A DNA stretch of 32,000 nt from Candidatus Heimdallarchaeota archaeon B3_Heim (GTDB lineage: Archaea > Asgardarchaeota > Heimdallarchaeia > Hodarchaeales > Hodarchaeaceae): positions 1 through 32,000 of the forward strand of contig NJBF01000030.1 of assembly GCA_003144275.1 (NCBI GenBank). The letters run 5' to 3'. Position 1 is the first letter of the stretch. Each line of letters opens with the position of its first letter. The position numbers and the translations under genes were made by a program. Of the stretch, positions 9,183-31,998 are shown piece by piece. Under the pieces are notes generated by a model. It searched no databases. It had not been told where the DNA came from and was given only the letters and a program-made list of their open reading frames with translations.

Positions 9183-10892
9183 ATGTTCCTATCTACTGTG
9201 AAACTGAAAAATTTCCGTAGTATTACTGCTCTTAACTTAGAAAATCTTAAAAATTTAAACTGCTTTATTGGGAGTCATAATTCAGGAAAAACAAATATTC
9301 TAGATGGAATATCCGTTTTCTGGGATCCTCAAATTCGTACTCATAGTCAACAAAGGCAATTTCAAGCAGATACAACTCCTTTGAAGGAAGATTTCGATCG
9401 TAGCATATTATCATACCTGGATACTCATCATACACATGGAAAATTTAATTTCATTCTTGATCAACATCAGGGATTGCTTCCATGGAAAGAAAATGAGTCG
9501 TTAAAACAAAATTTTGTCCAAACTGCATTTAAATACAAGATCATAAATCCATTTGACGTTTACGATATATTTCTGGATGATTTGAGTTCAATTGTGGATT
9601 TAATGAAAATTAAATCCCTAGATTTTGATTTATCCTTAAATCCTAGTTTTTTAGAATTCCTCGAAGAGTCATTATTTCTTCGATTACGATCAGATGAGAT
9701 AATTAAATACGAATCAGTAAACGTACCTGTACCTATGATCCGAGATGCGCTCGGGACTACTTTTATTCGTCGATTTCATAATATGAATTTAGAATACGAA
9801 GTGCTACGAGCTAATTTGTTGAATGTTCTCCAAGGGAAGGACTACCAATCTATCACTTCCATAGAAAAATTCCTAAAGGATGTAATTGACCAAGATTTCG
9901 TATTCCGAGTTGGGGGAATCTCTCCTGATGGAAAACCTCAGATTGATGTTACTATTGAACGTAGTTTCTCTAGTCCATTATGGCGTATCTCAAGCGGGAC
10001 AATTAGATTGATTGCGCTTGCAAGTTTATTAACTACGGATCCTGTAAACGGACAGATAATTATCATTGATAATCCTGACCTTTTTTTACATCCGCGGGGA
10101 GAAAGAGAGTTAGCAAGAAAATTGGAATCATTTGCTAAAACTAGGCAATTCTTTTTTTCTACTCATTCCTCACGGTTATTAATTGGACAAGCTCATCTTG
10201 TTGAGCTAAGGAATGGATGGACCAACATCGAACGCATTCGGGGCCGTAAATCCATGAGAAAGGTTGTTAAACTTTTAGGGATTAGACCCTCGGACTCCCT
10301 AGGATCCGACATCGTTGTTTTTGTAGAAGGAAGAACGGACTCACGAGTATTTCGAGTATTCGAAGATAAAATATGTCATATCTATCCTGAATTATCAAAA
10401 GTACGTGTTTCGTATGTTGGGGTCGGAGGATGGACAAATATGAAATATGTCTTATCAATCGAATTGTTGAAAAGTAAATTTGTTCGAAGTAGAGCTCTCG
10501 CAATTACTGATGGGGACATTGTTAGCACCAAATCTTATGAAAAAGTTAAACAAAACTGGCAAGATGTTTTCCAAAAGGATGGTGATTTCTTTTCTTTGCA
10601 AGAGGAGTGTATCGAATCACTCTTTCTTAACAATCCAAGGGTTTTTGTTGGCATAATCAGACAAAAAGAAAGACCTAGTCCTTCTTTAGCCGAAATCAAT
10701 CAATTCATTCATCAAAAGCGTAATCATGGGTTATCAGATAAGACTATTACGCGTGAAATTGTAATAAAATACAATATAGGGAGAAAATATTCTTCCTCCA
10801 TTGCAGAGAGACTTGCAAACCAATTTAAAGAGGAGGAAATTCCAACCTATTTGGCTGAATTCTATAAATCCCATATTTTACAATACGAATAA
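9183..10892 (+). CDS. OLD-family ATP-dependent nuclease (ABC-type ATPase + TOPRIM domain)
   Basis: LKNFRSI start, Walker A GSHNSGKT, signature SSGT, Walker B variant IIIIDNPD, STHS H-loop; TOPRIM FVEGRTD and TDGD, plus EECIE. Confidence 0.85.
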   Translation: MFLSTVKLKNFRSITALNLENLKNLNCFIGSHNSGKTNILDGISVFWDPQIRTHSQQRQFQADTTPLKEDFDRSILSYLDTHHTHGKFNFILDQHQGLLPWKENESLKQNFVQTAFKYKIINPFDVYDIFLDDLSSIVDLMKIKSLDFDLSLNPSFLEFLEESLFLRLRSDEIIKYESVNVPVPMIRDALGTTFIRRFHNMNLEYEVLRANLLNVLQGKDYQSITSIEKFLKDVIDQDFVFRVGGISPDGKPQIDVTIERSFSSPLWRISSGTIRLIALASLLTTDPVNGQIIIIDNPDLFLHPRGERELARKLESFAKTRQFFFSTHSSRLLIGQAHLVELRNGWTNIERIRGRKSMRKVVKLLGIRPSDSLGSDIVVFVEGRTDSRVFRVFEDKICHIYPELSKVRVSYVGVGGWTNMKYVLSIELLKSKFVRSRALAITDGDIVSTKSYEKVKQNWQDVFQKDGDFFSLQEECIESLFLNNPRVFVGIIRQKERPSPSLAEINQFIHQKRNHGLSDKTITREIVIKYNIGRKYSSSIAERLANQFKEEEIPTYLAEFYKSHILQYE

Positions 10893-11103: not shown

Positions 11104-12357
11104 ATGCGCACCAAGAAACACCCTCAACCCCAGTTATCGATCCGCATGCAAATGAAACCACGGCCCATATTTACTGATTTGTGTACCTGTGCCAAAAATC
11201 TCTACAATCGCGCGACCTATGAGGTCCGGCAAGAATTCTTCCAGACAGGGAAATGGCTCCAGTATACGGCGCTCTATCATCGGCTCAAGCACGAACCCGT
11301 CTATCTCGAATTAAAAGCCATCTCGGATAGCTATTTACCCCAGCAAGTCTTACGCCAGATAGAACAGGTCTGGCGCGGCTTTTTTAACGCCTTGAAGGCC
11401 TGGAAAAAAGATTCCACTAAGTTTCAAAACCGGCCCCGAACCCCGCACTATAAACCCAAGAATGGGCGGCATATGCTGAGCTTTCCTCGGCCCCGCGTTC
11501 GTATCCGCAATAATCGAATATTATTTGCCCGGAATCTCATGATCCGCGGCTTTCCAGCCTTTCCAGTAGGCGCTCTTCCCTTGACAGCGGAAACATGTGT
11601 GGGGGCGCGGCTAGTCCCCTTTTATGACCGTTTTGTGGTCGAACTAATTTATGAAGTGCAGGTGCACCCTTTTCCTTCCTCTGATTTTCCCTCCCGTGCT
11701 ATGGGAATTGATCTCGGGCTTACCAACCTCGTAACTACGTCAGACGGCTTACTCGTCAAAGGCGGGATTGTGAAGACCATAAATCAGTGGTATAATAAGC
11801 AGCTGGCACACTATCGATCCAGGGCTTCTCTCTGCAACCACCCGCTGATTACTCAGCGCATTCTGCGCCTCCATCGGGTACGGACGAACAAACTCCGAGA
11901 TTTCTTCCATCAAACCACACGGCGCCTCATCACTTATTGTTTAACACACAATATTGAAACCTTAGTCATTGGGTATAATGCAGGATGGAAACATCAGTGC
12001 AACCTCGGAAAACGCACAAACCAATCGTTTGTCCAACTTCCCTTCTTGCAGTTGGTTCAGATGCTTGAATATAAGGCGAAACTTGTTGGTATGACAGTAG
12101 TTCGCGTGAAAGAGGCGTACACCTCCCAGCAATGTAGTAAATGTAGTCACACGGAAAAAAAGAATCGAAAATCCCGTGGTTCCTTTTCCTGTCTACGGTG
12201 TGGGGTTCATCTGAATGCTGATTATAATGCAGCATGTAATATTCTTCAGCGTTGTCTCAATCCCTCCCAAGTAGTCCCCACGGAAAGCATACATTCTCAT
12301 GTTGCTAACCTGCCGGATAGCGGATGTGTGATTCATCCTGTCCAGAACTCTTTTTAA
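11104..12357 (+). CDS. tnpB: TnpB (IS200/IS605-type) with rearranged RuvC-II site
   Basis: KNLYNRATY N-terminus, RuvC-I MGIDLG, VIGYN.GWK in place of the canonical Glu motif, VKEAYTS, zinc finger CSKC/CLRC and RuvC-III NADYNAA. Confidence 0.93.
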   Translation: MRTKKHPQPQLSIRMQMKPRPIFTDLCTCAKNLYNRATYEVRQEFFQTGKWLQYTALYHRLKHEPVYLELKAISDSYLPQQVLRQIEQVWRGFFNALKAWKKDSTKFQNRPRTPHYKPKNGRHMLSFPRPRVRIRNNRILFARNLMIRGFPAFPVGALPLTAETCVGARLVPFYDRFVVELIYEVQVHPFPSSDFPSRAMGIDLGLTNLVTTSDGLLVKGGIVKTINQWYNKQLAHYRSRASLCNHPLITQRILRLHRVRTNKLRDFFHQTTRRLITYCLTHNIETLVIGYNAGWKHQCNLGKRTNQSFVQLPFLQLVQMLEYKAKLVGMTVVRVKEAYTSQQCSKCSHTEKKNRKSRGSFSCLRCGVHLNADYNAACNILQRCLNPSQVVPTESIHSHVANLPDSGCVIHPVQNSF

Positions 12358-19372: not shown

Positions 19373-20965
19373 TTGGCAATAATGCAAAATGATCTTGTTG
19401 ATAGTATAAATGAGCTGTTACAAGGTCCAATTGAGTGGTTGTTTAATGCCGGACCTATCATTATGTTTCCCATAATTATTATCATACTGGGGCTTATTTT
19501 TAGACAAAGCCTCTCAAAATCCGTCAGAAGTGGTATCCTTATTGGAATCGGCTTCATCGGTATCTTCACTTTCGCATTTGATGTGTTTATGGAAACAGTT
19601 GGTCCAGCAGCTTTCGCTTTTGTCGAAAATACTGGAGTTAAACTGACAGCAATCGATGTTGGATGGGGTCTCGCAAGCAGTATTACGTGGGCTATGCCGA
19701 CAGCTTTCGGTGTTATCGTTGTATGTTTCATAGTAAACCTAATAATGTTAGCATTAGGAAATAGAACAGTTACTGTCATAGGTAAGACATTTAAAATCGG
19801 CACTATGACATTAGATGTAGATCTATGGAACTATTGGGCGTTTGGATTTACTGCCGCTCTCACATACGTAGTAACTCAAAACTCTCTAGGTGAATTTCCA
19901 GCATACGTGTTAGCAATGCTATTTGCAGCTATACACGCAATCATGGCTTTCAAGATATCAGACTGGATTGCACCTTGTATGGCTGATCCTGAAAACTTTA
20001 ATTTACCAGGAATCTCGTTACCTCACGGAAATGCGATGATGGCACCATACGCGTTTGGTATTGACAAGGTCTTGCGAAAGATCCCCTTCATCGGGTCTAT
20101 CAAGGCCGATCCCGAATCAGTTCAAGAAAAACTTGGTCTAATCGGTGAACCAATCTTCATTGGTTTAGTTATTGGAGCATTTATTGGTACTCTCGGGTAC
20201 TATCCATTGATTGATACTGATTTCTGGGGACCAGAAGGTTTTCTGTTATTGGTTGCAAATGTAGCCATGACATCAGCAGCTGTTATGTATTTAATACCCA
20301 AAATGGTCGCTGTTCTTATGGAAGGGCTCATACCTCTATCCGAAGGCATTCGGGATTACATTACACAAAAATATCCTGGACGTGAGTTCATCATTGGAAT
20401 GGATATGGCTATTATCATAGGATATCCAGCTGTAATTGCTGTAGCTCTTATAATGATTCCAATTTCAATTTTCATGGCGGTTATACTTAGTAACCTCCCA
20501 ACACCATTTGGAATGATTGTATTACCTTATGCAGACCTAGCAGGTATGGTTTTCTATTCAGTATTGGCCATTATGCCCTCCAAGGGTAATCTTGTTCGCG
20601 GTGTTATATCTGGTACAATTCAACTTGTCGTCATATTGTACACTGCTGGAATAATGGCACCTCTGATGACTGTTGCTGGAACCACTGCAGGCTTCGATTT
20701 AACAGGTTTCTACTTTGGTGAAACAGGCCTGACAATCACATCTCTAGATGCTGGAAGTAATGCGGTCCATTGGATGCTTATTCTTTTGATTTTCCCATTC
20801 TTCCAAATGGCAGAATGGACTGCTATCTTTACAACTGGTGGTTATTGGATTTGGTTTGCTATAGATGTCGCATGGTGGGTTGGTTACATCCTATTATGGT
20901 ACTATCTAAGAAACGAACCAACGAAGATCTCAGAAGAGAAACTCCAGGATACAGCTGTTGCGTAA
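19373..20965 (+). CDS. PTS galactitol-family (Gat/Sgc) EIIC permease
   Basis: IGIGFIGI, IDVGW, VDLWNYW, ISLPHG, GEPIFIGL, PKMV.VLMEGL.PLSEG and LPYADLA are GatC-family motifs; SD-like GGTGA before the TTG. Confidence 0.9.
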   Translation: MAIMQNDLVDSINELLQGPIEWLFNAGPIIMFPIIIIILGLIFRQSLSKSVRSGILIGIGFIGIFTFAFDVFMETVGPAAFAFVENTGVKLTAIDVGWGLASSITWAMPTAFGVIVVCFIVNLIMLALGNRTVTVIGKTFKIGTMTLDVDLWNYWAFGFTAALTYVVTQNSLGEFPAYVLAMLFAAIHAIMAFKISDWIAPCMADPENFNLPGISLPHGNAMMAPYAFGIDKVLRKIPFIGSIKADPESVQEKLGLIGEPIFIGLVIGAFIGTLGYYPLIDTDFWGPEGFLLLVANVAMTSAAVMYLIPKMVAVLMEGLIPLSEGIRDYITQKYPGREFIIGMDMAIIIGYPAVIAVALIMIPISIFMAVILSNLPTPFGMIVLPYADLAGMVFYSVLAIMPSKGNLVRGVISGTIQLVVILYTAGIMAPLMTVAGTTAGFDLTGFYFGETGLTITSLDAGSNAVHWMLILLIFPFFQMAEWTAIFTTGGYWIWFAIDVAWWVGYILLWYYLRNEPTKISEEKLQDTAVA

Positions 20966-21516: not shown

Positions 21517-21708
21517 TTATCTTTGTTGTATTAATACCGTTCTGAAAGACTTACCCAAATAGGACTGGTAAAAATAATTAGGAAAAATTATTACAAACAG
21601 TCTTTGGAGCTGTTCTTCCTGATTCAACGACGCGAGCCTGCTGAAATGCAGGTCTTGCCACCTCTCCACAGGCATTTAAGGTCTCCGCGGAACTCTCGGC
21701 GACCGGAA
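21517..21708 (-). ncRNA. Predicted omega/reRNA of tnpB copy 2 (scaffold to 21537, guide about 21536-21517); 5' boundary approximate
   Basis: Collinear with 835-1006, with the same CCTGC/GCAGG hairpin and GAACGG end. Confidence 0.6.
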
Positions 21709-22858
21709 AGAGTAGGAACTGATAGATAGAATAATAATTGGCAACATTAAGTGCAGCATTCTGATCACGATCTAATACCAACCCGCATAACGGGCAATGA
21801 AAAATTCGATCAGCTAACGTCAGATCACGACGGTAATAAAGGCAATTCGAGCATAATTTCGAGGAAGGAAACCAGCGATCGATCTCAATCACCATGGAAC
21901 CATATAAAGGCGCCTTATATTTTAATAACCTCTGAAACATACCATGTGAAAGATCGGCCCAATATTTACTCAGCTTTTTATTTTGCATTAATCCTTTGAC
22001 ATATAAATCCTCGGTAACTATCACACTGTGGTTTTTAGCGAGATAGGTGGAGGTTTGATGCAAAAAATTATGCCGTTGGTTAGTAATTCGACGATAAAAT
22101 CGCGCTAAACGGAGGGCTGATTTCTGTTTATTATTTGAGCCTTTCTCTTTCCGTGAATGAGCTTTCGCTAAGCGACACTGTTTCCGAGCTTGACGGAGGA
22201 GAAATTTAGGTCGTACGATTGGTATTCCAGAAGATAAGGCTGCAAAGACAGATAATCCTTTATCCAACGCAACGAGTGGTCCACCGTTGGGTTCACGATC
22301 AATTTGCACCTCTTTCACGGTAAGAGCAACATACCAGCGATCCGCAGTCCGAGAGACCGTGGCACTCAGTATCCGTGTCGATACAGGTAAATTTGATATT
22401 TCTTTTAGACGTAGTTTCCCCAAACGAGGCAATTGCACCTGTTTTACCTCTGGAAAAAGGCGAACCACTCCTGTCAATCGAAAGCTGTCCTTGCACTTTC
22501 CTTTTTTCTTGAACTTGGGCAATCCGACATAGCGGGTGGTTTGGTTCTTTTTTCTTTGTTGATGATTGGTGAAGAAATTCTGATAGCCACGATCTAAGTC
22601 GCGGAGTGCCTCTTGCGGGACACATTTCGAGACCTCATACATCCAGGGAAAATCAGTGTGTTTCAAGTTGTTTAGTTCTTTATGTTGTTTCATAGCATCG
22701 GTATAACGAGCTTCACCTGTTTGCGTTCGATAACGGTTTTTTCGATTGGCCAATCCCCAGTTCCAGGTAAATCGCGATATACCTGCACATTTGGTCAGAA
22801 GCGTCCGTTCTTTGTTATTTACACATAATTCATACTTGTATCCTCGCGTCCTGAGCAT
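21578..22858 (-). CDS. tnpB: RNA-guided endonuclease TnpB (IS607-associated type), full length
   Basis: HTH-like N-terminus (RFTWNWGL), FPWMYEVSKCVPQEALRDL, intact D/E/D RuvC triad, zinc finger and VAESSAETLNACG tail. Confidence 0.95.
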   Translation of the reverse strand: MLRTRGYKYELCVNNKERTLLTKCAGISRFTWNWGLANRKNRYRTQTGEARYTDAMKQHKELNNLKHTDFPWMYEVSKCVPQEALRDLDRGYQNFFTNHQQRKKNQTTRYVGLPKFKKKGKCKDSFRLTGVVRLFPEVKQVQLPRLGKLRLKEISNLPVSTRILSATVSRTADRWYVALTVKEVQIDREPNGGPLVALDKGLSVFAALSSGIPIVRPKFLLRQARKQCRLAKAHSRKEKGSNNKQKSALRLARFYRRITNQRHNFLHQTSTYLAKNHSVIVTEDLYVKGLMQNKKLSKYWADLSHGMFQRLLKYKAPLYGSMVIEIDRWFPSSKLCSNCLYYRRDLTLADRIFHCPLCGLVLDRDQNAALNVANYYSIYQFLLFPVAESSAETLNACGEVARPAFQQARVVESGRTAPKTVCNNFS

Positions 22859-23204: not shown

Positions 23205-24623
23205 CTAGATAGATTCAAATAATGATTCGATACCAGGTTCAATACCCTGCAATAAACTAAAACCGAATCGAGTTTCACGATTAGTAATTTCTCCAATGAA
23301 ATTTGTCTGCATTAGGGTCTTTACTTCTTCGAGACTTGACGGAGGGAAACCGGTATGTCCCAAAACATACGCCAATTTAGGGTAGGCTGCCTCAGGCAGC
23401 ATATTTCCTCCTTCAATAACACCCCGAGCTAACATTTCTCTTCCTGTTTCATACACACGTAAATGAGCAAATCCATAGAGAGGTTGAACGACCATTACGA
23501 TCGGAATACATTCTTCTTGCGCTCTTTCTAATACTGGATAGAAGTCCGAACTTACATGACCAAGACCAGTCCCTATCATAACTACTCCATGATATCCTAA
23601 ATCTATTACTGAATGGAGTAAGTCAGGATTCATACCTGGATAGAAGTATAAGATAGCCACTTTTTCATCGATTCGCGTATCTAAACGGAAATCCTCATGT
23701 TTTGCTCGACATTTGACAGGGGAAAAGTATGAAATTTCTTGAGTTTGCCAATCAATTTTACCGACAGGAGGAACTGACAAACTACGAAAAGTATCTCGTC
23801 TACTACTATGCATCTTTCTAACACGAGTTGGACGATGTAAATAATCCGCTTTATGGCTAGTTGAACCCATCATAGAAATTAATACTTCACCTATGTCCGC
23901 ATAACCAGCAACTGTTGTTGCGTTTAACAAATTGATTGCAGCGTCACTAGACGGACGATCTGAGGATCGTTGAGAACCCAGTATTATCACTGGAATAGGT
24001 AGATTATGCAAAAAGTACGATAGTGCTGACCCAGTATAGGCCATAGTATCTGTCCCATGTCCAATTATGATTCCATCAGCCCCGCTGTCCACTTCCTTTG
24101 CTATTTCTTCAGCAGTCTTAACCCAAAATTCAGGCTTGAAATTTTCAGAAAGAATTTCAAAAAGAGTTCGTGGAGTTAAATTGACACGAGATTGAATTTC
24201 AGGAACTGCAGCAAATAATTCTTCAGGAGTAAAAGCTGGGAGTACAGCGCCAGTTCGATAATCTAGTCGACTAGCTACCGTGCCACCAGTACCTAGTAGA
24301 ACTACATCGGGAAGAGATTCCTTACGCTTCACATTTATAGCAGGTAACTTATAATTACCTTTTGAATAGCCAAGAAGTTGAAAAATTGTTTTATCGGTAA
24401 TTTCTACTCCGATATTATATCCAGTATCCAACACTCTCAAAGTTATAAAATTGGGAGCGGTAAAAGCTGATCGAGGTAATAATATTCCCTGAAAATGGGC
24501 TCCATTTTCTTTTGTAACAACAATTTCAGACCATACCTTTATTTTCTCTATCGCCAAGATTTCACGTATTTTACCTTTATATCCAGGTAAAGTATCATTA
24601 TCTTCGTCCATATTACTGATCAC
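23205..24623 (-). CDS. gatD: Glu-tRNA(Gln) amidotransferase subunit D
   Basis: N-terminal GILLPRS/GYNIG domain, TGGTVASR, HGTDTMAY, GSQRSSDRPSSD and KMHSSRRDTF. Confidence 0.96.
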   Translation of the reverse strand: MISNMDEDNDTLPGYKGKIREILAIEKIKVWSEIVVTKENGAHFQGILLPRSAFTAPNFITLRVLDTGYNIGVEITDKTIFQLLGYSKGNYKLPAINVKRKESLPDVVLLGTGGTVASRLDYRTGAVLPAFTPEELFAAVPEIQSRVNLTPRTLFEILSENFKPEFWVKTAEEIAKEVDSGADGIIIGHGTDTMAYTGSALSYFLHNLPIPVIILGSQRSSDRPSSDAAINLLNATTVAGYADIGEVLISMMGSTSHKADYLHRPTRVRKMHSSRRDTFRSLSVPPVGKIDWQTQEISYFSPVKCRAKHEDFRLDTRIDEKVAILYFYPGMNPDLLHSVIDLGYHGVVMIGTGLGHVSSDFYPVLERAQEECIPIVMVVQPLYGFAHLRVYETGREMLARGVIEGGNMLPEAAYPKLAYVLGHTGFPPSSLEEVKTLMQTNFIGEITNRETRFGFSLLQGIEPGIESLFESI

Positions 24624-26559
24624 CGATTTTTCCTTCTTTGAGAAGGGTGGAAAGAATTTGCTCGCTAGTTAACATAGGAAAATGCGCTTTTAGAATTCCA
24701 AACAGCTTATCTAGGGTAATATTATTGGACTGCTTTTCTGAATCTGCAATTACGACTTTTATTCGTCGGTACATATCATCGTCTATATTTGTTATCTCTA
24801 TTAATCGTGTCTCTCTACTATATACACCTGAGCTACCAATTTCAATTAGAATTGCTTCCAGAAAATCTTTAGATATTTGGTTTGTTATCAAATCTGTCAG
24901 TAGTTGTCTGTAGATCTGACTATTCGTTTCTTTCTTTAGCTGATGCTTTTTCATATAGTGAGAAGCTTGTTGTACTAAACCTAACAATTTTCTACAGGCC
25001 TCTGGGTATTTTTGAATGATAAATGAAAACTCAGGATAGAAATTTACTTTTTCAATGAACATTAATTCCCTTACTGAGATAGGAAATTTCGAGGATATAT
25101 CCCAAGGAGGAATAATGTTAGGGGGAAGCAGTTCGGAGTAATCTAAAGAAATAGAAACAGGAGGAGTATCAGTATCGGAATACATTCTATCTTTTCCATG
25201 GATGACTCGTAAAAATTCACTATTGTGGGTGTTAGGGTTAATTCGTCTTGTTTCTTCTGGTACACCGTTCAGAGCCTTATTCATACGTTCAACTGTTCTT
25301 GATAATGCATGAATTACACTTTTTTGAGTTCCACGGATCACGACATAACTGTCATTATTTTTTAGATTAAGTATTTCTCGGACACGGTTGCTATTCAGCC
25401 ACTGTTGAGGAGTGTCAGATTGGCTCATTTTGTCCATTGACAATCCTGTGATTAATTCTATCCGATCAAAAAGTTCTTCAGAAAATAGCTTTCCCGGTTG
25501 CACGTCTATCAAGAATATACCTTTACATTTAGGTAATCTAACAGCTAAAGCTACTTCATTCTCACCGAGATTAGTAATCGCAGAAGAGACATCAATATAA
25601 TTCGCTTGGAAATCAGATTTTTTGATTCCTCTATCTTTTAATTCTCTCATAAGATCAAGTAGCGCCAATTGGCGAGTAACCTCATGATCACAGTATTGAG
25701 GTAGATCATTTATGTCCTGAATTCCTTTTAATTCAACTCGTGCTCCACCAGTTATTGAAATGTTAACATCTTGACGAACAGACCCAATCCCTCTTCGTGC
25801 AATCCCCAACACTCTAATTCCCAGGCCAAGCAGTAATCCTATATTCTGTAAAGCAAAAGGATCGTGACAATCTAAATGATTCGTAATAATTTCTGTTAAA
25901 GGAATTCCTAACCGATCAAGATTATAATAAACAGTACGAGACGCTCTATCATGGAAATTTACTCTTCGTGCAGCATCCTCTTCTATTAATACGTTATTAA
26001 TCCTAATTTTTTTGTCTTGGAAATTTATGAATCCATCACGAGCAATAATTGTTGTACGCTGAAAACCTGTTGTGATAGAGCCATCCAAGTATTGCTTTCT
26101 GTTAAATATCACTTCATTTACTGGAGATTCACAATTTAAGAACCTTGCAAGTAAAAATCCTTTGGTTATGATATTATGACACGGTGGGAAAGGAGGTGTC
26201 TCATCCATCTCATACGTACAAATATTATCTCCAAAAGTTTCATAAATTACACGATATTGCTTTTCAAACTCTACCAGCATCCCAGCATCGAAATCTCCAA
26301 GTTCACCAAGTACAGGTCGGAAGTATCGCTCAAAATGAAAGTCACTACGAGCTGTAGAAGGTACCAGAACTGCAGGACAATGGCAAAATAATTTTCGTTC
26401 AGACTGTAATTGTGCATGTATCTCCAAACCTGCACAAAAACCTAGTTCTTCATAATTATAATTGAAAGATTTTACTGACGGGGCTTGCACTATCTGTCCT
26501 ACCCAATTTTTGTACATTTTTAATATCGGATTGCTGCTGATTACCTGTAGCAAAATCAA
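24613..26559 (-). CDS. gatE: Glu-tRNA(Gln) amidotransferase subunit E (true start may be the ATG at 26517 or GTG at 26490)
   Basis: GLEIHAQL, RKQYLDGSITTGFQRT, EEDAAR, LDRLGIPL.EI, GIGSVRQDVNISI.GGARVELKG and RMYSDTDTPP. Confidence 0.94.
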   Translation of the reverse strand: MILLQVISSNPILKMYKNWVGQIVQAPSVKSFNYNYEELGFCAGLEIHAQLQSERKLFCHCPAVLVPSTARSDFHFERYFRPVLGELGDFDAGMLVEFEKQYRVIYETFGDNICTYEMDETPPFPPCHNIITKGFLLARFLNCESPVNEVIFNRKQYLDGSITTGFQRTTIIARDGFINFQDKKIRINNVLIEEDAARRVNFHDRASRTVYYNLDRLGIPLTEIITNHLDCHDPFALQNIGLLLGLGIRVLGIARRGIGSVRQDVNISITGGARVELKGIQDINDLPQYCDHEVTRQLALLDLMRELKDRGIKKSDFQANYIDVSSAITNLGENEVALAVRLPKCKGIFLIDVQPGKLFSEELFDRIELITGLSMDKMSQSDTPQQWLNSNRVREILNLKNNDSYVVIRGTQKSVIHALSRTVERMNKALNGVPEETRRINPNTHNSEFLRVIHGKDRMYSDTDTPPVSISLDYSELLPPNIIPPWDISSKFPISVRELMFIEKVNFYPEFSFIIQKYPEACRKLLGLVQQASHYMKKHQLKKETNSQIYRQLLTDLITNQISKDFLEAILIEIGSSGVYSRETRLIEITNIDDDMYRRIKVVIADSEKQSNNITLDKLFGILKAHFPMLTSEQILSTLLKEGKIGDQ

Positions 26560-26710
26560 ACTTGGTTTTTCTGAATAAAAGCATATAAAATTAAGCTTTT
26601 AAATCCATGAATACATCCTTCAATCAGATACTTACATCTTTCAATATTTCCAATCTTTTTACTTAAGATTTACAGCATAATATGTTCTGTCTCGGGAGAT
26701 ACACTTAATA

Positions 26711-27811
26711 ATGCCCAAAAGGAAACAAAAGTTTATTCATTTAGCTTTTACAACTGCGGAATGTAGACGAATAATTAAAAAAACAGGGATAAAACGTGTA
26801 TCACAGAATGCCGCTGTAGCTTTAAATAAACTACTCACATACAAAGCTAGAGAAATAGCTGCTGGAGCAGTTGCCAGAAGTGGTGAAAGAAATGCTCAAA
26901 CTGTTTCAGCTGATGACATTACTTATGCAGTTCGTATGGGATCTCCCGTAGCAGGATATGAAGTTGATAGTGCAGCTCCTGTGGTGCATTATGTTTGGTT
27001 TATATCGTCTGCTGGTACCTGCTTGCTTTCTCGCTCATATTCTGGATTAAAATTTCCTGATACTATTTTTGCTGGTCTGGTAACTGGTATAGTTGATTTG
27101 CTGGCTGAGGTTACTGGAAGATTGCTTGATAAAATTACTACAGACGAATTAGTTATTCATATCCGTAGAATAGGAGAAATGACTGTAGCAGTTATTTGTG
27201 ATAGTGAGCAAACCGAACCCATTGATGAATTAACGGATTTACTTGCGCTTCGATTTTCAGACGTTTTTACAGAAGAAATTAACCAAGAAGTAATAGATGT
27301 GGGAATATTTGAAGATTTTACACCAGTTTTAGACGCTTTAGTTTCTGGTGCAGGATTGAACATCCCCAAAGGAAGACTGAAAGTAATAGGTGAGCAGCAA
27401 CTACGTCTTACAGATAAACAACTTGAAGAAACTGTCGATGCTGCTGCTTTAAGGCAAGAACTACGTCGTGCGCACGAATCCATCCAAGATTTTGGATTAT
27501 TCAGGAGAGAAGTGGACGAAGAAGATTTAACGACTACTGATGTTGATTTGGATTTTGATGAGTCACCAGATGTGTCTGAAATAAAAGCTGTATTACGTCA
27601 AGCGTCGAAAGATATTCGACAAGAGATAAAATCCAATGACATTCCAGAAAATCACGAACTACCAAGTACAGAACAGGTAACTTCGAAAGACATTAGAGAA
27701 GAAGTGGCGAAGGATTTATCTGAAATTATTCAGCTGGAAAGCGAAGAACAGGTGATCAAAAAACCAACAAAGAAGAAAAAGAGAAAAAAATCACGAAAAA
27801 GACGTAAATAG
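26711..27811 (+). CDS. Histone-fold + longin-like domain fusion protein with acidic tract and polybasic C-terminal tail
   Basis: Residues about 11-76 align by eye with HMf-type archaeal histones (RIIK..G..RVS..A..AL...L.....EIA..AV........TV.A.DI..A). Residues about 91-212 show the longin pattern (YVWFISSAG.CLLSRSY...IFAGLVTGI....AEV...F.DVF...IF.DF...LD.L). Confidence 0.75.
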   Translation: MPKRKQKFIHLAFTTAECRRIIKKTGIKRVSQNAAVALNKLLTYKAREIAAGAVARSGERNAQTVSADDITYAVRMGSPVAGYEVDSAAPVVHYVWFISSAGTCLLSRSYSGLKFPDTIFAGLVTGIVDLLAEVTGRLLDKITTDELVIHIRRIGEMTVAVICDSEQTEPIDELTDLLALRFSDVFTEEINQEVIDVGIFEDFTPVLDALVSGAGLNIPKGRLKVIGEQQLRLTDKQLEETVDAAALRQELRRAHESIQDFGLFRREVDEEDLTTTDVDLDFDESPDVSEIKAVLRQASKDIRQEIKSNDIPENHELPSTEQVTSKDIREEVAKDLSEIIQLESEEQVIKKPTKKKKRKKSRKRRK

Positions 27812-27823
27812 AATTCAGTACGT

Positions 27824-30451
27824 TTATAGTAATTTTTCCCACTGTTTTTGCGTAATACCATAAATTTTGAAGACAATTTCATCCATAATTCTTTGATTAT
27901 GGTTAAGGAAAGCGTGATACTTTTCAAGATCTTTTAGGAGGAATGATAGGTTCATTCTAGTAGTTTTAGAAAGAGCTGAGAACTTTTCTGGATTTTTACA
28001 GAAATGGAACAATCTTTTTTGCGAACTAAAAGGGAATACTTCAGAATTGGATTTGACTAACTTCCATATTTTCTCATAAATATTAGAAACATTGCTCCCA
28101 ATTTGTATATTTTCTTGCGTTTTAACTTCTAATTGCTTAATTCTTTGAACTTGAAGGTTTGTACTATTTTTTAAGCTAATTATTGGAAAATGATTCATAT
28201 CCCTAATTCGAATTTGTGGATATCGATTTCCTTCAGTTCCCGATGTACGAATTATATTTAACTCTTCTCCCAACCAATTCCCAAGAGCTGATGTAAGTAT
28301 CCCAACTATCAAATATGGAGAATAAGGTGTTTGGATATTATAGATTGTATGGAGATTCCTCAATCCGAAAAACCCCTTTTCATCATAATTTACAATAAAT
28401 TTTGAAGCAGTTTGACGGACTAATATTTTTGGTTCAGTAAATCTTTCTTTCTCACCTGAAATTAAAAGGACTTCTTTATTTCCAACTTTTGAACGATTCA
28501 AGTTATTCATTCGAAGATAATCTTCATAATCCTTTGAGAATCTAACGAAGGAATTTTTCATTCCTGAAACCCAAAAAGTTACAAAAGACTGTGGTAATCC
28601 ATTAGCTCCATCTATCACTCGATACATATCACTAGATAGCGTATTGGATAGAAAATGAGATTTAAGCATACTTCCATATTCCAAACCACAGGAAATCTTT
28701 GAGATGTCTCCCAATTTAATGACTACACTATTGATTTGATTAAGAATTTCACGGGTAGCCACTTTTCGGTAAATCTTTAAGATAAAATTTGGGTGATCAC
28801 TAAAATGACTTGTGGATTCAATTTTAGGGTCATAATTCAGGTTCTTTTGGCCTAAAAATGATATAGAGTCCTTTTTATGATCCTTAGAGTTTTCTAATAT
28901 TAGAATAGATAAGTCTACTACTGCTTGTTTATATTTGTAATTTTCAAGCAAGTAGATCAAAGTATACTTCTCCAATAACGTTTTACGTATTTCAATGTAC
29001 GAAGATAGATCAAGAAAGGAATGATCAATAACAAAACTCACGATCCCATCATTTAAACGTGAAGAATAGCGTAATGCTAAACCAAGAAACATAATGTAAA
29101 GATTATCACGCTTTCCCATGAATTTGGGGATCATTTGTTTGAGGATTTTCCTAATATCAGGGGGTATAACCTTTTGTGAAAATCGTCCTGATAATGGAAT
29201 ATAGGGGGGATTTGAAAGAATTAAATCATATCTAGGATGAGGAATGTTATTCTTATAATTATTGGACATATGAAGTAAGAAATTCTTTTTCTGTAAATTA
29301 TTTAAATTTTCAGGCAAATCATTAGATAGATTAAGGTACAAATTAATAATATTTTTAGAAAAATTTATGATTTTTTCATCAATGTCAAATCCAAAGAAGG
29401 AAGATAAAAATAACTCTTTTCTGAGCTTTAAAAGTGAACTAAAGTGAAGTTGATCTTCGCGTTGGAGGACTTGATTAACTAGCCATTCCAATGCTACAAT
29501 AAGAATCAATCCAGTACCAGAAGCTGGATCTAGAATCTTCAATTTCTTGATGTTGTTGATTGAGGATATCTTGCTAGTTTTTATCTTATTAAAGGAGTGA
29601 GAAACCAATGGAAACGTAAGTTCTAAAGGGGTAAAATATTGACCTCTTAATTTGTCAATATTTAGCTGTAAGGGAGGATATTCAAGTAGGTGGATTAATG
29701 TGAGATCAAGAAGATCTACATAAGATAATTCAACGACTTGTTCAATAAGAATTTTCTTTTGTAGTAAGGCTAAAAAACGTGTAATGTCGATATTAGTTGG
29801 ATGTGTATCACTCTGAAGTTCAATCATTTCAAAATCGTTTAGAGTTTGTGAGTAACTCATAAAAAAGTCATTTGGAGAAGTAAATCCTCGTAAACGATCC
29901 AATTTAGGAGTATCACCGTTTTTATGTAAACTACTTTTTCGTACAAACTCAATAATCTTTAAAAATACGCTAAAGCCATTTTGATATGATTCTAAACGAA
30001 TTTTGTCATTATAAACCTCAAGAATCCCTGGGTTAATGAAAATTGAGGCAAGAAGCAGTGACACGAGGTTTTTAGGAATAATCGACCAGCAAATAATGAA
30101 GTCGTGTGACATTGAAAAGATTAGAGTCTCATTAGTTGAAATGACAATGATCCAATCAGGAATCCCCTGAGTGATCAATTTCTTTCTAAGAAACTGAATA
30201 ATTCTCAGATTTTTATAATTAAATAATTCTTGAGCAGAAATATTCGAAATGAGAATCCCCACATGTGATTTAATCCAAAAATTACCAATATTCTTTAGAT
30301 TTTCAGATGGAAAACCGAGTAAATTATTGAAGTTCTTAGCTTCAATATTCTGAATGGTTGCATGAAATTCTGAATTTTGTTCAGAATCTGGATTCTCTTT
30401 TTCTAATATTAACTGATCCTCAATGAGTTTAATCTGTGCGTTAAGAGGCAT
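27824..30451 (-). CDS. N6-adenine DNA methyltransferase, Eco57I/TaqI-like (type IIG-like RM protein; nuclease domain uncertain)
   Basis: GQYFTP motif X, ILDPASGTG motif I, LSNPPY motif IV, DNLYIMF, and a C-terminal TaqI-like TRD (KILVRQTA...YD). Confidence 0.85.
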   Translation of the reverse strand: MPLNAQIKLIEDQLILEKENPDSEQNSEFHATIQNIEAKNFNNLLGFPSENLKNIGNFWIKSHVGILISNISAQELFNYKNLRIIQFLRKKLITQGIPDWIIVISTNETLIFSMSHDFIICWSIIPKNLVSLLLASIFINPGILEVYNDKIRLESYQNGFSVFLKIIEFVRKSSLHKNGDTPKLDRLRGFTSPNDFFMSYSQTLNDFEMIELQSDTHPTNIDITRFLALLQKKILIEQVVELSYVDLLDLTLIHLLEYPPLQLNIDKLRGQYFTPLELTFPLVSHSFNKIKTSKISSINNIKKLKILDPASGTGLILIVALEWLVNQVLQREDQLHFSSLLKLRKELFLSSFFGFDIDEKIINFSKNIINLYLNLSNDLPENLNNLQKKNFLLHMSNNYKNNIPHPRYDLILSNPPYIPLSGRFSQKVIPPDIRKILKQMIPKFMGKRDNLYIMFLGLALRYSSRLNDGIVSFVIDHSFLDLSSYIEIRKTLLEKYTLIYLLENYKYKQAVVDLSILILENSKDHKKDSISFLGQKNLNYDPKIESTSHFSDHPNFILKIYRKVATREILNQINSVVIKLGDISKISCGLEYGSMLKSHFLSNTLSSDMYRVIDGANGLPQSFVTFWVSGMKNSFVRFSKDYEDYLRMNNLNRSKVGNKEVLLISGEKERFTEPKILVRQTASKFIVNYDEKGFFGLRNLHTIYNIQTPYSPYLIVGILTSALGNWLGEELNIIRTSGTEGNRYPQIRIRDMNHFPIISLKNSTNLQVQRIKQLEVKTQENIQIGSNVSNIYEKIWKLVKSNSEVFPFSSQKRLFHFCKNPEKFSALSKTTRMNLSFLLKDLEKYHAFLNHNQRIMDEIVFKIYGITQKQWEKLL

Positions 30452-30501: not shown

Positions 30502-31998
30502 CTAATTAGTAGATACTTCTTTTTCTGTTTCAGTTTTAATTTTAGAATAGAAATTACTCGCCAGGTTTCTTATTGTCCTATCTGAATCGTGAAGAATAAT
30601 ATGCTCTAATACAGTAAGAATTTCTGCTTGTCTCTCTTCCTCTTCTAAACCTGCTTTCCCTAGTTGTTGAATTGCATCCATTCTTATTATATAATTCTTT
30701 GAGGTACTCGCTTGCTTCAGTAAATCAATTAAAATGGACCCATTTTCATTTATACTCAATTTTTCCTCAGGGGGTATCATTAAAGGTAAATCTATCGTTA
30801 CTTGACATCCTTGGTTGAATCCTTCAGATTCAATTTCGAACAAACCACCATGATCAGTTATTACTTGTTTTGCCAAGAATACTCCTAAACCTAGTTGACT
30901 GGCGGATGAGTGGAATGTCATGAAGGGTTCCCCTATATATTGTAGGTTCTCCTGATTAATTCCAACACCTGTATCCTTACAGGTTAATCTAATTATTTTA
31001 TCTTTTTCAATGTTTAATGCAATTTCCACTGTACCATGACCCGTAAATCTTATCGCATTTTCAAAAATATTCCTTAAAGCTTGTAACATGCGTATACGAT
31101 CGACATTGATAACAAAAGGCGTTGTCGGGTATTCAATAACCAAGTGAACTCGGTATCGTTTCAAAATAAATTCAAGTCCGTCAATTGCTTGTTGAACAAT
31201 TGGCACAAAATCCTCTAACATAAGTGTACATTTAAATTTACCCATTCTGACTGCAGCAATGTCATTTAAATCGTTGACAATGGTTTCTAATTGTGAAAGA
31301 TTTCGTCCAAACGCAGTTAACAGATTATTTTCCAATATCCCTTTTTCATCATCTGTAATACCATTTACTAATCGTGAATTGTAAAAATCCAGATGCCCAC
31401 GAAGATTGCTTATCGGTGTTCGAAGTGTATGCTGGGAAAGTGTAAGAAAGTCGAATTTCATATCTGTTAACTGTTTGACAGGAGTTAAATCTACCATAAT
31501 TCCTTGTACTATTGCGGTATTCCCAATATATAGTTTTTTAACGCTAGCCATGACAGGTATCCGAGTACCATCTTTACACAGTAATTCTAGCTCTGTTGTT
31601 TCATAAGGAGAAACAAACTGTGTATCAATCGTATCTTCATCGATTTTTCCTGTAATTAAATCTCTTTTTGTTTCTAACAAATAAGCAGCAATTTTAGCTC
31701 TGTGTTCGGGAGAAACGAAAAATGTAGGGAGGAACTTCCTCTCTTCAATCTCCTCTTCAGTATATCCTAATTTTTCAATGAATGCTTGACTATACCAATC
31801 GATTATCCCATTCTTGAAGATAAAGAGGAAGTTAGGAGATTTACTAAATAAATCGTGAAATTGTTTTTGTTGTGAATCGAGATCAGCTCTTATTTGCATA
31901 AGCTTCCCAATATGCCGTATAAGGAGTAGGTCATATCTTTCACTAATAGACGAAACTCTTACTTGAATCCAAGTCGTACTACCGTCTGGTAATAGTGC
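30502..31998 (-). CDS. Multi-PAS sensor histidine kinase with C-terminal HEAT-like helical repeat, 5'-partial
   Basis: The frame stays open from the ATG at 31899 to the window end and reads ALLPDGSTTWIQVRV (PAC-like). PAS/PAC (CKDGTRIPV), H-box QHTLRTP, N-box NIFENAIRFT, G1 DTGVGI and G2 LGLG are present. Confidence 0.9.
   Translation of the reverse strand, partial: ALLPDGSTTWIQVRVSSISERYDLLLIRHIGKLMQIRADLDSQQKQFHDLFSKSPNFLFIFKNGIIDWYSQAFIEKLGYTEEEIEERKFLPTFFVSPEHRAKIAAYLLETKRDLITGKIDEDTIDTQFVSPYETTELELLCKDGTRIPVMASVKKLYIGNTAIVQGIMVDLTPVKQLTDMKFDFLTLSQHTLRTPISNLRGHLDFYNSRLVNGITDDEKGILENNLLTAFGRNLSQLETIVNDLNDIAAVRMGKFKCTLMLEDFVPIVQQAIDGLEFILKRYRVHLVIEYPTTPFVINVDRIRMLQALRNIFENAIRFTGHGTVEIALNIEKDKIIRLTCKDTGVGINQENLQYIGEPFMTFHSSASQLGLGVFLAKQVITDHGGLFEIESEGFNQGCQVTIDLPLMIPPEEKLSINENGSILIDLLKQASTSKNYIIRMDAIQQLGKAGLEEEERQAEILTVLEHIILHDSDRTIRNLASNFYSKIKTETEKEVSTN

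Follow-up and report, generated by a model that had tools for sequence, protein, structure and literature searches.

Gene layout at the locus

The window, that is, the whole stretch of 32,000 nucleotides from Candidatus Heimdallarchaeota archaeon B3_Heim that was analysed, carries on its forward strand an open reading frame (ORF) of 366 codons, which fills exactly the interval given in Table 1 as a single frame uninterrupted by a stop or a frameshift. The encoded protein begins with a short basic tail and a histone fold, continues through a linker into a longin domain, and ends in a polybasic tail that is preceded by two conserved helices and by acidic segments. The sequence GGGAGA is located about 12 nt 5' of the ATG. 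Residues 261-290 carry a net charge of -10, and the last 30 residues hold 13-21 K/R in all 27 of the aligned members of the fusion family (the core clade). The helix of residues 235-260 is also found in divergent second-tier relatives, most of which lack the polybasic tail. No tRNA and no Rfam family was detected in the window.

Table 1. Positions of the fusion gene, of the segments of its product and of the adjacent gene in the window
Feature	Positions	Strand	Basis
AT-rich intergenic region, divergent from gatE; presumed promoter	26560..26710	+	sequence inspection only
Whole ORF, 366 aa + stop; histone fold-longin-polybasic tail protein	26711..27811	+	read from sequence
Basic N-terminal tail, residues 1-14 (MPKRKQK...), net charge +4	26711..26752	+	pLDDT <50 at residues 1-8
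Histone fold, residues 15-78	26753..26944	+	Pfam PF00808, HMfB/HMfA matches, AF2 helices, residue tally
12-residue linker, residues 79-90	26945..26980	+	pLDDT <50 at 79-85; bridged by Logan contigs
Longin domain, residues 91-215	26981..27355	+	AF2 models, structural alignment, profile
Conserved amphipathic helix, residues 235-260 (TDxQLEETVDAxALRxELRRA...IQD)	27413..27490	+	family alignment, AF2
Acidic linker, weakly conserved, residues 261-285	27491..27565	+	pLDDT <50 at 262-283
Second conserved helix, residues 286-308 (PDVxEIKAVLRQAS...)	27566..27634	+	family alignment, AF2
Acidic segment, partly helical, residues 309-347, net charge -9	27635..27751	+	AF2, charge tally
Polybasic C-terminal tail, residues 348-366	27752..27808	+	K/R 14 of 19 residues, acidic 0
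Eco57I/TaqI-type N6-adenine DNA methyltransferase, 875 aa	27824..30451	-	Pfam N6_Mtase, Eco57I, TaqI_C; DPASGTG and NPPY motifs

The methyltransferase gene lies tail-to-tail with the fusion ORF at a distance of 12 nt, and adjoins it in 15 of 19 congeneric loci, where the two are surrounded by a syntenic block with gatDE on one side and a PAS histidine kinase on the other. The enzyme was not accepted as a functional partner, as the pair is convergent, belongs to this larger block and is confined to one genus-level clade. The neighbourhoods of four homologues, compared in search of a linked partner gene, had nothing in common, and no conserved operon partner or GTPase neighbour was found among the congeneric loci and the divergent relatives. 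In LC_3, an Arf/Ras-type GTPase gene is located two genes upstream of the fusion homologue; this is taken as a coincidence, since genes of this kind are numerous in Asgard genomes and the linkage is not conserved.

Distribution and selection

The ORF encodes a real and strongly constrained protein that is restricted to the order Hodarchaeales. Full-length homologues (n=66) are labelled Hodarchaeales, and one of them is HeimC3_22820 of LC_3, a genome now classed in this order. The fusion is present in 18 of the 21 congeneric genomes and in both genomes of the sister family, and is absent from the remainder of the 400 Asgard genomes; outside Hodarchaeales, only stand-alone or differently fused longins occur in these. 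The two-domain architecture read by the earlier note is correct, and it is confined to Asgard archaea and, within them, to this single order. Fold searches of afdb_clusters and atlas revealed the same two-domain architecture nowhere outside Hodarchaeales, eukaryotes included, a result that does not amount to proof of absence.

Both the histone fold and the longin domain are under strong purifying selection (dN/dS ~0.03-0.06), and the value for the whole protein is 0.08-0.10 when compared to orthologues at a dS of ~1.2-1.7. In deep comparisons, the rate of evolution of the histone fold is two to three times that of the longin domain. Logan contigs from other runs cross the domain junction with no indels. 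The danger raised by the earlier note, a chimeric assembly or the read-through of separate histone and longin genes, has a negligible probability and was rejected on the homologues, their distribution over genomes, the bridging contigs and the dN/dS values, as the same single frame, free of stops and frameshifts, recurs in more than 60 independent assemblies (some of them single-contig genomes), independent contigs bridge the junction and purifying selection spans it, and nothing was found in favour of an artefact, though stand-alone longin paralogues and relatives without a histone fold do exist.

The histone fold

The N-terminal domain matches Pfam PF00808 (CBFD_NFYB_HMF) over residues 16-74 with an E-value of 5.5e-8 and 33.4 bits (cut-off 21.4), and phmmer aligns residues 16-75 with HMfB without a gap at E 6.9e-7, HMfA and HMfB both being matched at E ~1e-6. 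AF2 places the helices at residues 15-24 (alpha1), 32-59 (alpha2) and 67-77 (alpha3, of full length), which reproduces the a1-L1-a2-L2-a3 order of HMf-type histones. The profile match, the ungapped alignment and the modelled helices bear out the histone fold that had been proposed from the letters alone, and the boundaries then proposed for the two domains (residues 11-76 and 91-212) were essentially right. The alignment with HMfB and HMfA covers their whole fold, but these are proteins of ~68 aa when compared to the 366 aa found here.

In HMfB, we take R19 in L1, R52-K53-T54 ('RKT') in L2 and the R52-D59 clamp to be the residues that contact DNA, and H49, L62 and L46 to be the tetramerisation residues of the four-helix bundle that allow hypernucleosomes to form. 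The equivalent of RKT is A62-Q63-T64 (AQT) in the B3_Heim copy and R-[D/E]-E in most family members, with D or E at the K53 position in 21 of 27 and E at the T54 position in 14 of 27. The H49 equivalent is E or D in 24 of 27 members (E in B3_Heim), that of L62 is Q, R, K, Y, H or F across the family and polar in most, and that of L46 is R in the B3_Heim copy. The equivalents of G16, R19 (R29 in the B3_Heim copy), S21 and D59 are kept throughout (27/27), R52 is kept in 24 of 27, and the K13 equivalent is also retained. Judged by these residues, the fold-maintaining positions are kept, and the L2 'RKT' contacts and the tetramer residues are lost. Neither the L2 contact set nor the tetramerisation residues of nucleosomal histones are found in the fusion protein, the conserved R19 and D59 equivalents notwithstanding. 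The change of RKT to AQT, the acidic residues at K53 and T54, and the replacement of H49 by E and of L62 by Y or Q therefore mean that neither the L1L2 site for DNA wrapping nor the tetramer interface has been conserved.

The stand-alone histones of the same genome retain GRKT and ARH. The B3_Heim genome has 10 histone-fold loci, tailed and doublet forms included, and some members of the fusion family have tails with KKP/KKT-type repeats. The histone fold is normally an obligate dimer module. Of the two roles suggested earlier, a tether for DNA or partner histones and a pure dimerisation module, the AQT triplet and the lost H49 and L62 favour something close to the second, a module mainly for dimerisation, and leave of the first a weak contact with DNA.

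The longin domain

The AF2 model of the isolated domain (pLDDT 89.8, pTM 0.85) has the element order b-b-a-b-b-b-a-a, and the full-length model has the same order, with strands at residues 91-99, 104-109, 141-143, 148-154 and 157-163 (b1 to b5) and helices at 117-135, 169-192 and 198-213 (a1 to a3). In the numbering of the domain model, these elements are strands 6-14 and 19-24, helix 32-50, strands 56-58, 63-69 and 72-78, and helices 84-105 and 112-128. The modelled topology is that of longins, a five-stranded antiparallel sheet without an N-terminal helix and with two C-terminal helices on one face.

The best Foldseek matches are the longins of delta/zeta-COP, the sigma/mu adaptins, TRAPP Bet5/Trs23, Mon1/Ccz1, Fuzzy and VAMP7, with TM values up to 0.71 and E-values down to 7.8e-6. 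In VIA-align, longins occupy every one of ranks 1-27 (Z 10.9-14.6, 108-133 residues aligned), and the roadblocks (MglB, LAMTOR, Asgard RB) reach a Z of at most 10.7 over ~100 residues, which cover only residues ~3-107 of the model. A 58-sequence profile searched against PDB sequences recovered Bet5 (2.1e-4), TRAPPC1 (2.2e-4) and delta-COP (1.2e-3), followed by MON1 (0.02), VAMP7 and AP sigma at E-values of 0.02-0.3. A shallower profile built from the fusion family only had no match among PDB sequences, and a Pfam scan of the single protein found neither longin nor roadblock. The Pfam matches of the longin relatives are confined to the longin clan, namely Fuz_longin_1 (best 2e-6), Sybindin, Longin and Clat_adaptor_s, and Robl_LC7 was matched neither in the fusion protein nor in 77 relatives. 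A roadblock/LC7 identity was rejected because the topology differs, roadblocks align over a shorter range and Robl_LC7 was never matched; instead of the order a1-b1-b2-a2-b3-b4-b5 of that family, which has an N-terminal helix and lacks a second C-terminal one, the domain opens with a strand directly behind the linker and closes with two helices. By model and profile, residues 91-215 are a bona fide longin domain, and on this point structural alignment (Foldseek), topology (AF2) and profile all agree with the earlier note.

The domain shares the b-b-a-b-b-b-a-a sandwich with Bet5/Trs23, Mon1-Ccz1, Fuzzy/CPLANE, delta/zeta-COP and the sigma/mu adaptins, as well as with VAMP7/Sec22/Ykt6, SR-alpha SRX and the Lokiarchaeal 8yqg. 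It superposes on solved longins with an rmsd of 2.6-3.5 over 120-126 residues, but at an identity of just 10-18%, and none of the longins named here is fused to a histone fold. Conservation within the fusion protein is highest in the longin domain (mean column identity 82%).

A symmetric homodimer is predicted for the protein. The dimer score was 0.52 when compared to 0.00 for the best control, with at least 87% of contacts shared between runs and a partner pLDDT of at least 65, although this score may stem from solved dimers of longins, roadblocks and histones that the model has learned. Among proteins of solved structure, 20 of 30 that are pairs of one chain reached the mark set for the score, as did 1 of 23 that are single chains. 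The modelled interface is symmetric and is formed by residues 113-147; the histone fold is not in the listed interface. Helix alpha1 packs beside alpha1 and the edge strand beta3 beside beta3, which would produce a continuous sheet, the canonical longin/roadblock interface. Asgard roadblock and longin proteins dimerise via the central helix, and have been called dimeric small-GTPase platforms (PMC10933270), an arrangement with which the modelled dimer agrees.

Related fusions and earlier descriptions

A 2024 review, 'Nucleosomes at the Dawn of Eukaryotes' (PMC10919886), devotes one sentence and a figure panel to hodarchaeal proteins in which a histone fold is joined to a 'Roadblock/LC7 domain', and states that their function is not known. 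The present family likewise combines a hodarchaeal histone fold with a domain of the Roadblock superfamily, and as far as that description goes, the match in clade and architecture means that the two groups are almost certainly the same. The architecture is therefore already known, having appeared in print once as histone-Roadblock/LC7, and the earlier note erred in supposing that no such protein had been described. A full-text literature search found no archaeal paper that pairs a longin with a histone fold, and the prior mention came to light only under 'Roadblock'. Beyond the sentence and panel of the review, the present analysis adds the assignment of the domain as longin and not roadblock/LC7, the conserved helix, the polybasic tail and the degenerate DNA-contact and tetramer residues, as well as the homodimer model, the pattern of occurrence across 400 Asgard genomes and the methyltransferase synteny. 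A non-canonical family of hodarchaeal histones, 'HMpC', which may or may not be the present one, is named in a 2026 preprint (10.64898/2026.07.02.735847).

The Rab GTPase histones of Lokiarchaeota are another Asgard-only fusion of a histone with a trafficking/GTPase module, the function of which is unknown (Schwab et al. 2024, PMC11390915). They resemble the present protein in that a histone fold is joined to a module of a eukaryote-type trafficking/GTPase system in Asgard archaea only. However, in those proteins the N-terminal module is the GTPase itself, and the C-terminal histone is of the alpha3-truncated, face-to-face type (PMC11390915), whereas the present fusion, from another lineage, has an N-terminal histone fold with full-length alpha3 and a partner of the GTPase-regulator type, a longin. 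The nearest relatives of the fusion longin in sequence and structure are Asgard longin-wHTH and longin-GTPase fusions, which carry winged helices (TrmB, HTH_47, ArsR/HTH_5, HTH_9), TFIIB zinc ribbons, or Arf/Ras/Rag GTPases. Unlike the present protein, these usually have the longin at the N-terminus, and they bind DNA with a winged helix in place of a histone fold.

Possible functions

The reading preferred here, and held tentatively, is that the protein serves as a non-nucleosomal scaffold associated with chromatin or nucleic acid, and not as a DNA-wrapping nucleosomal histone. The histone fold would strengthen the pairing mediated by the longin domains, and its dimer, through the L1 arginine and the K13 equivalent, could together with the K/R tails bind DNA or hypernucleosome ends independently of sequence. 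The near-invariant longin dimer would offer a platform surface for a small GTPase or another protein partner, the same surface with which longin/roadblock dimers elsewhere bind and regulate small GTPases, and the acidic tracts may fold back on the basic tail and mask it. Such a scaffold would follow the logic of the Asgard longin-wHTH and Lokiarchaeal Rab-GTPase-histone fusions, in which a trafficking-type regulatory module is combined with a DNA-contacting module. Association with nucleic acid is suggested by the polybasic tail of the core clade, by the wHTH-fused longin relatives and, weakly, by the methyltransferase neighbour. Against it, the tail suits acidic lipids or RNA as well as DNA. 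The absence of the tail from most second-tier relatives means that tail-mediated DNA binding was not the ancestral function, and the acidic L2 of most members disfavours DNA contact by the histone fold itself.

In a rather unlikely alternative, the protein would be a membrane-side GTPase regulator with no role on DNA, and the histone fold would provide only a dimerisation handshake (as in TAFs or the SOS histone domain). Polybasic stretches bind acidic lipids, and on this account the tail would anchor the protein on anionic membranes, while the longin dimer would form a GEF/GAP platform for a GTPase resembling Arf, Rab or Rag. The acidic L2 and the missing tetramer residues are in line with such a role, as are the high conservation of the longin domain and its modelling as a canonical platform dimer, and longin dimers do work as GEF or GAP platforms (PMC10933270). 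A precedent is the histone domain of SOS, which is involved in lipid binding and in the regulation of the Ras GEF (PMC11390915). However, R19 and K13 persist in the histone fold together with the RD-clamp residues, basic residues also mark the N-terminus, as they do in tailed Asgard histones, and the basic tail is lacking in most second-tier relatives; moreover, no GTPase gene is linked, and no transmembrane or lipidation signal is evident in the fusion protein.

Unlikely as well is a histone variant incorporated into chromatin, where the protein would form heterodimers with one of the approximately nine other histone folds of the genome and enter or cap hypernucleosomes, adding to them a longin domain and a basic tail similar to that of linker histones. 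The idea that histone variants limit hypernucleosome growth has been raised (10.1101/2025.05.24.653377), and the loss of four-helix-bundle residues is what would be expected of a capstone. The full-length alpha3, the conserved residues of the fold core, the tailed and doublet histones encoded elsewhere in the genome and the KKP/KKT-type tails of some members point in the same direction, but against it stand the homodimer model, which passed its controls, the acidic L2 of most members, and the evolution of the histone fold, faster than that of the longin domain by the factor given above.

More doubtful still is a signal-responsive DNA-binding regulator, in which the longin would be a sensor or partner-binding domain that controls a DNA-binding head, making the protein a transcription factor instead of a scaffold, with a histone fold doing what the winged helix does in Asgard longin-wHTH proteins. 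Histone folds of the NF-Y and NC2 type are transcription factors, and Pfam family PF00808 is named for them; the winged-helix and zinc-ribbon fusions of the longin relatives also speak for a regulator. Nevertheless, the DNA-binding module precedes the longin in this protein, the reverse of the order in the longin-wHTH fusions; no pocket for a ligand is apparent, and there is no conserved neighbourhood of target genes.

A further reading, for which the chance is likewise slim, is a chromatin-tethered small-GTPase platform in the order of archaea nearest to eukaryotes. The dimer of histone folds, together with the basic tails, would rest on DNA or on hypernucleosomes, and the longin dimer would serve to recruit or switch a GTPase resembling Arf, Rab or Rag, the state of which would be set by closeness to the chromosome. 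Chromatin-bound RCC1 and Ran follow the same logic, which here would predate any nucleus.

Significance

Hodarchaeales are at present the closest known archaeal relatives of eukaryotes, and both modules of the protein are eukaryote signatures, histones on the one hand, and on the other the longins that act as platforms in trafficking and in the control of GTPases. A protein that couples them could show the first wiring of chromatin to GTPase signalling, or alternatively an early reuse of histone folds as plain dimerisation modules, comparable to TAFs, NF-Y and SOS. A hodarchaeon, Ca. Margulisarchaeum peptidiphilum HC1, has now been brought into culture, and its whole-cell and histone-enriched proteomes and its transcriptome are deposited (10.64898/2026.07.02.735847), which makes the question of function testable, and the domain boundaries, the interface at residues 113-147, the degenerate DNA-contact residues, the helix at residues 235-260 and the polybasic tail offer handles for this.

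Domain architecture of the fusion protein

The fusion protein (P0001) is encoded between the divergent gatE-gatD pair and a convergent gene for an 875-aa protein. Residues 16-74 match the Pfam family PF00808 (NF-Y/archaeal histone) with an E-value of 5.5e-8 and 33.4 bits (cut-off 21.4 bits), residues 16-75 align without gaps with the archaeal nucleosomal histones HMfB and HMfA (phmmer, E about 1e-6), and the AF2 model of the full-length protein, built from 27 homologues, places the histone-fold helices at 15-24, 32-59 and 67-77. A low-confidence linker follows, and then the elements β-β-α-β-β-β-α-α over residues 91-213. The positions of these matches and elements therefore agree with the boundaries drawn in the earlier note, whose reading of the two domains as a histone fold and a longin domain also stands.

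Coordinates of the fusion gene, its neighbours and other loci considered
Feature	Position	Strand	Remarks
AAA_15/AAA_21 ATPase	9183-10892	+	569 aa; OLD-like TOPRIM domain
TnpB/IS605 OrfB	11104-12357	+	OrfB_IS605, Cas12f1-like TNB domain
PTS EIIC-GAT family permease	19373-20965	+	530 aa; E 2e-58
TnpB/IS605 OrfB	21578-22858	-	OrfB_IS605, Cas12f1-like TNB domain
gatE-gatD	24613-26559 and 23205-24623	-	divergent from fusion gene
Fusion protein	26711-27811	+	single uninterrupted frame, 366 codons
Eco57I/TaqI-type N6-adenine methyltransferase	27824-30451	-	875 aa; convergent with fusion gene
PAS-HATPase_c histidine-kinase-like protein	30502-31899	-	directly downstream of methyltransferase
Histone doublet (L003/L008)	G000:C27:8590-8997		142 aa, two folds; same genome
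N-tailed histone (L004)	G000:C36:2589-2765		MAKKKVDKKPAKKAAPKK...; same genome
Arf/Ras-family small GTPase (L045)	MDVS01000037.1:3827-4378	+	183 aa; Hodarchaeales LC_3

Several comparisons identify the second domain as a longin. Modelled by itself from an alignment of 58 sequences, it reaches a pLDDT of 89.8 and a pTM of 0.85, with the element order of the full-length model. The top Foldseek matches in the PDB and Swiss-Prot models (E to about 1e-6, TM to 0.71) are almost all longin proteins, including δ-/ζ-COP, sigma/mu adaptins, the TRAPP subunits Bet5, Trs23 and TRAPPC1, Mon1, Ccz1, Fuzzy/CPLANE, BLOC-3, VAMP7 and SR-alpha. In VIA-align, a structural aligner independent of Foldseek, longins occupy ranks 1-27 (Z 10.9-14.6, 108-133 aligned residues), with Fuzzy at Z 14.6 (rmsd 2.6, 124 residues), VAMP7 at 14.0, Trs23 at 13.8 and the Lokiarchaeal longin 8yqg at 10.9, while the roadblocks (MglB, LAMTOR, Asgard RB) score at most 10.7 over about 100 residues, with the last helix left out. 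Furthermore, the 58-sequence profile matched Bet5 (2.1e-4), TRAPPC1 (2.2e-4) and δ-COP (1.2e-3), followed more weakly by MON1, VAMP7 and AP sigma, among 177,635 PDB sequences. Similarly, 77 more distant relatives matched only longin-clan families in Pfam (best Fuz_longin_1, 2e-6), and never Robl_LC7.

The longin domain is the best-conserved part of the protein (82% mean column identity), with a near-invariant stretch that begins Y110-S-G-x-x-F-P-D-T-I-F and runs on through helix α1. Downstream of it lie a conserved amphipathic helix (235-260) and, set apart by acidic linkers of poor conservation, a second helix (286-308). The C-terminal 19 residues include 14 K/R and no acidic residue; all 27 aligned members have 13-21 K/R in their last 30 residues, in some of them as KKP/KKT-type repeats.

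Conservation of the histone fold

Residues were tallied in 27 family members in HMfB numbering (fusion-protein position = HMfB position + 10, from the ungapped alignment). D59 is kept in all 27, G16 and R19 in 26, S21 in 25, and K13 and R52 in 24. In addition, K53 is replaced by D/E in 21 members, T54 by E in 14 and H49 by E/D in 24, and at L62 the family has Q, R, K, Y, H or F and no leucine. Judged by the roles of these residues in HMfB, the family keeps the fold and the handshake dimer; it does not keep the paired L1L2 site for DNA or the four-helix-bundle interface required for hypernucleosomes. P0001 itself has A-Q-T at the R-K-T positions.

The B3_Heim genome holds nine further histone-fold loci, 10 in all. 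The stand-alone folds extracted from them keep GRKT and mostly ARH. Among these loci are an N-tailed histone and a doublet with RKT in both of its folds.

Distribution and age of the fusion

A word-indexed search returned 66 full-length homologues (349-499 aa, 53-96% identity), all Asgard and mostly labelled Hodarchaeales or Heimdallarchaeota. When the longin profile was run against 400 genomes of the phylum, the genus-level group of B3_Heim contributed 17 other genomes with matches at E 1e-76 or lower, in open frames 364-416 aa long; in one further genome of this group the gene is divided between the ends of two contigs. The two genomes of a sister family within Hodarchaeales match as well (E 1e-37 to 1e-40, 351-361 aa), and beyond that order the scan gave only weak matches to longins that stand alone or have other fusion partners. 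The same tiers emerged when 1.8 billion cluster representatives were searched exhaustively with a profile. Most members of the second tier, which are 245-347 aa long and have E-values of 1e-21 to 1e-36, carry an N-terminal histone fold; HeimC3_22820, from the LC_3 genome of 2017 that is now classified in Hodarchaeales, belongs to this tier. Within this one order the fusion is old.

Compared with orthologues at a dS of about 1-1.8, the histone fold and the longin domain each show a dN/dS of 0.03-0.06, and in deeper comparisons replacements are two to three times more numerous in the histone fold than in the longin domain. In Logan, contigs assembled from other runs span 26790-28090 and 26842-27121 with no indels, and therefore cross the domain junction. 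The homologues, the dN/dS values and these contigs together exclude a chimeric assembly or a read-through of two genes, the artefacts that the earlier note had named as refuting its reading.

Most second-tier relatives end in acidic rather than polybasic C-termini; the polybasic tail is therefore a later addition to an older core of histone fold, longin domain and helix. The related proteins P0075 and P0080, which lack the histone fold, retain the longin domain together with the helix after it.

Dimer model and possible function

Residues 1-222 were modelled as a pair, alongside controls. The homodimer scored 0.52 and the best control 0.00; of proteins whose structures were solved as pairs of one chain, 20 of 30 attain this mark, and of those solved as single chains, 1 of 23. 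The runs shared at least 87% of their contacts, with a partner pLDDT of 65 or more. The confident contacts listed are symmetric and span residues 113-147 (142:142, 143:143, 123:123, 127:127), with α1 predicted to pack on α1 and edge strand β3 to pair with β3, the geometry described for roadblock/longin platforms, Asgard ones included (PMC10933270). This outcome may reflect likeness to solved structures rather than independent evidence, since longin/roadblock and histone dimers have already been solved.

On the most likely, though tentative, reading, the protein would be a dimeric, non-nucleosomal histone-fold protein whose remaining basic histone-fold residues and K/R tails could associate with DNA or chromatin, and whose longin dimer could be the platform on which a partner docks, a small GTPase being the most plausible one. 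The same parts might instead form a membrane-side GTPase regulator, with the histone fold acting only as a dimeriser and the tail binding lipids, which we consider unlikely. Similarly doubtful is a variant or capstone that heterodimerises with ordinary histones.

Relation to other Asgard longin fusions

By sequence and structure, the longin domain has its nearest relatives in Asgard proteins that join a similar longin to GTPases of the Arf, Ras or Rag type, V4R or MIT domains, response-regulator receivers or winged-helix DNA-binding domains (TrmB, HTH_47, ArsR/HTH_5, HTH_9). Because these relatives carry such modules, the histone-fold fusion is one case of a broader Asgard habit of joining longins to GTPase or DNA-binding modules. 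P0082, an Asgard protein of 221 aa, and Atlas clusters place a winged-helix domain of these four types after a closely related longin, and may represent a class of DNA-binding proteins under longin control. That the fusion protein is itself a longin-regulated DNA-binding transcription factor is improbable.

The earlier note knew of no described protein with this architecture; it is already on record under the superfamily name, as hodarchaeal histone folds fused to a Roadblock/LC7 domain (PMC10919886). Full-text searches found no paper combining longin, histone fold and archaea, and two prokaryotic histone surveys (PMC11390915, PMC13260811) mention no longin or roadblock fusion, the former describing Rab-GTPase-histone fusions in Lokiarchaeota. 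This analysis adds to that record the assignment of the second domain to the longins, a map of the domains, the degenerate residues of the histone fold, a model of the dimer, the limits of the phyletic range and the synteny, for an uncharacterised family in an evolutionarily important place rather than a new kind of protein.

Gene neighbourhood

The convergent methyltransferase is identified by Pfam N6_Mtase, Eco57I and TaqI_C and by DPASGTG and NPPY in its translation; roughly the first 260 residues have no Pfam match, and a nuclease domain was not detected. It lies tail-to-tail with the fusion gene at 15 of 19 loci of the genus-level group (gatE is upstream at 7), with an identity of only 38-43% in comparisons that give 53-59% for the fusion protein. 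It is not beside the gene in the sister family or in second-tier relatives, whose neighbourhoods have nothing in common. The synteny reads as conserved local gene order, with no more than a faint indication of a role connected with DNA. The enzyme looks like a conserved chromosomal, perhaps orphan, methyltransferase rather than part of a mobile restriction-modification system. In relatives (L010, L012), the histidine-kinase-like gene shares this conserved block with the methyltransferase gene.

In LC_3, a small GTPase gene lies two genes upstream of HeimC3_22820, a position not conserved in the other genomes examined. Elsewhere in the window, the first of two TnpB genes sits in the only GC-rich kilobase (0.49 versus 0.31-0.44), which suggests a recently acquired element. 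The ATPase has a nuclease architecture of the OLD/GajA type, as is typical of genes for anti-phage defence, and the permease belongs to the PTS, components of which are uncommon in archaea.
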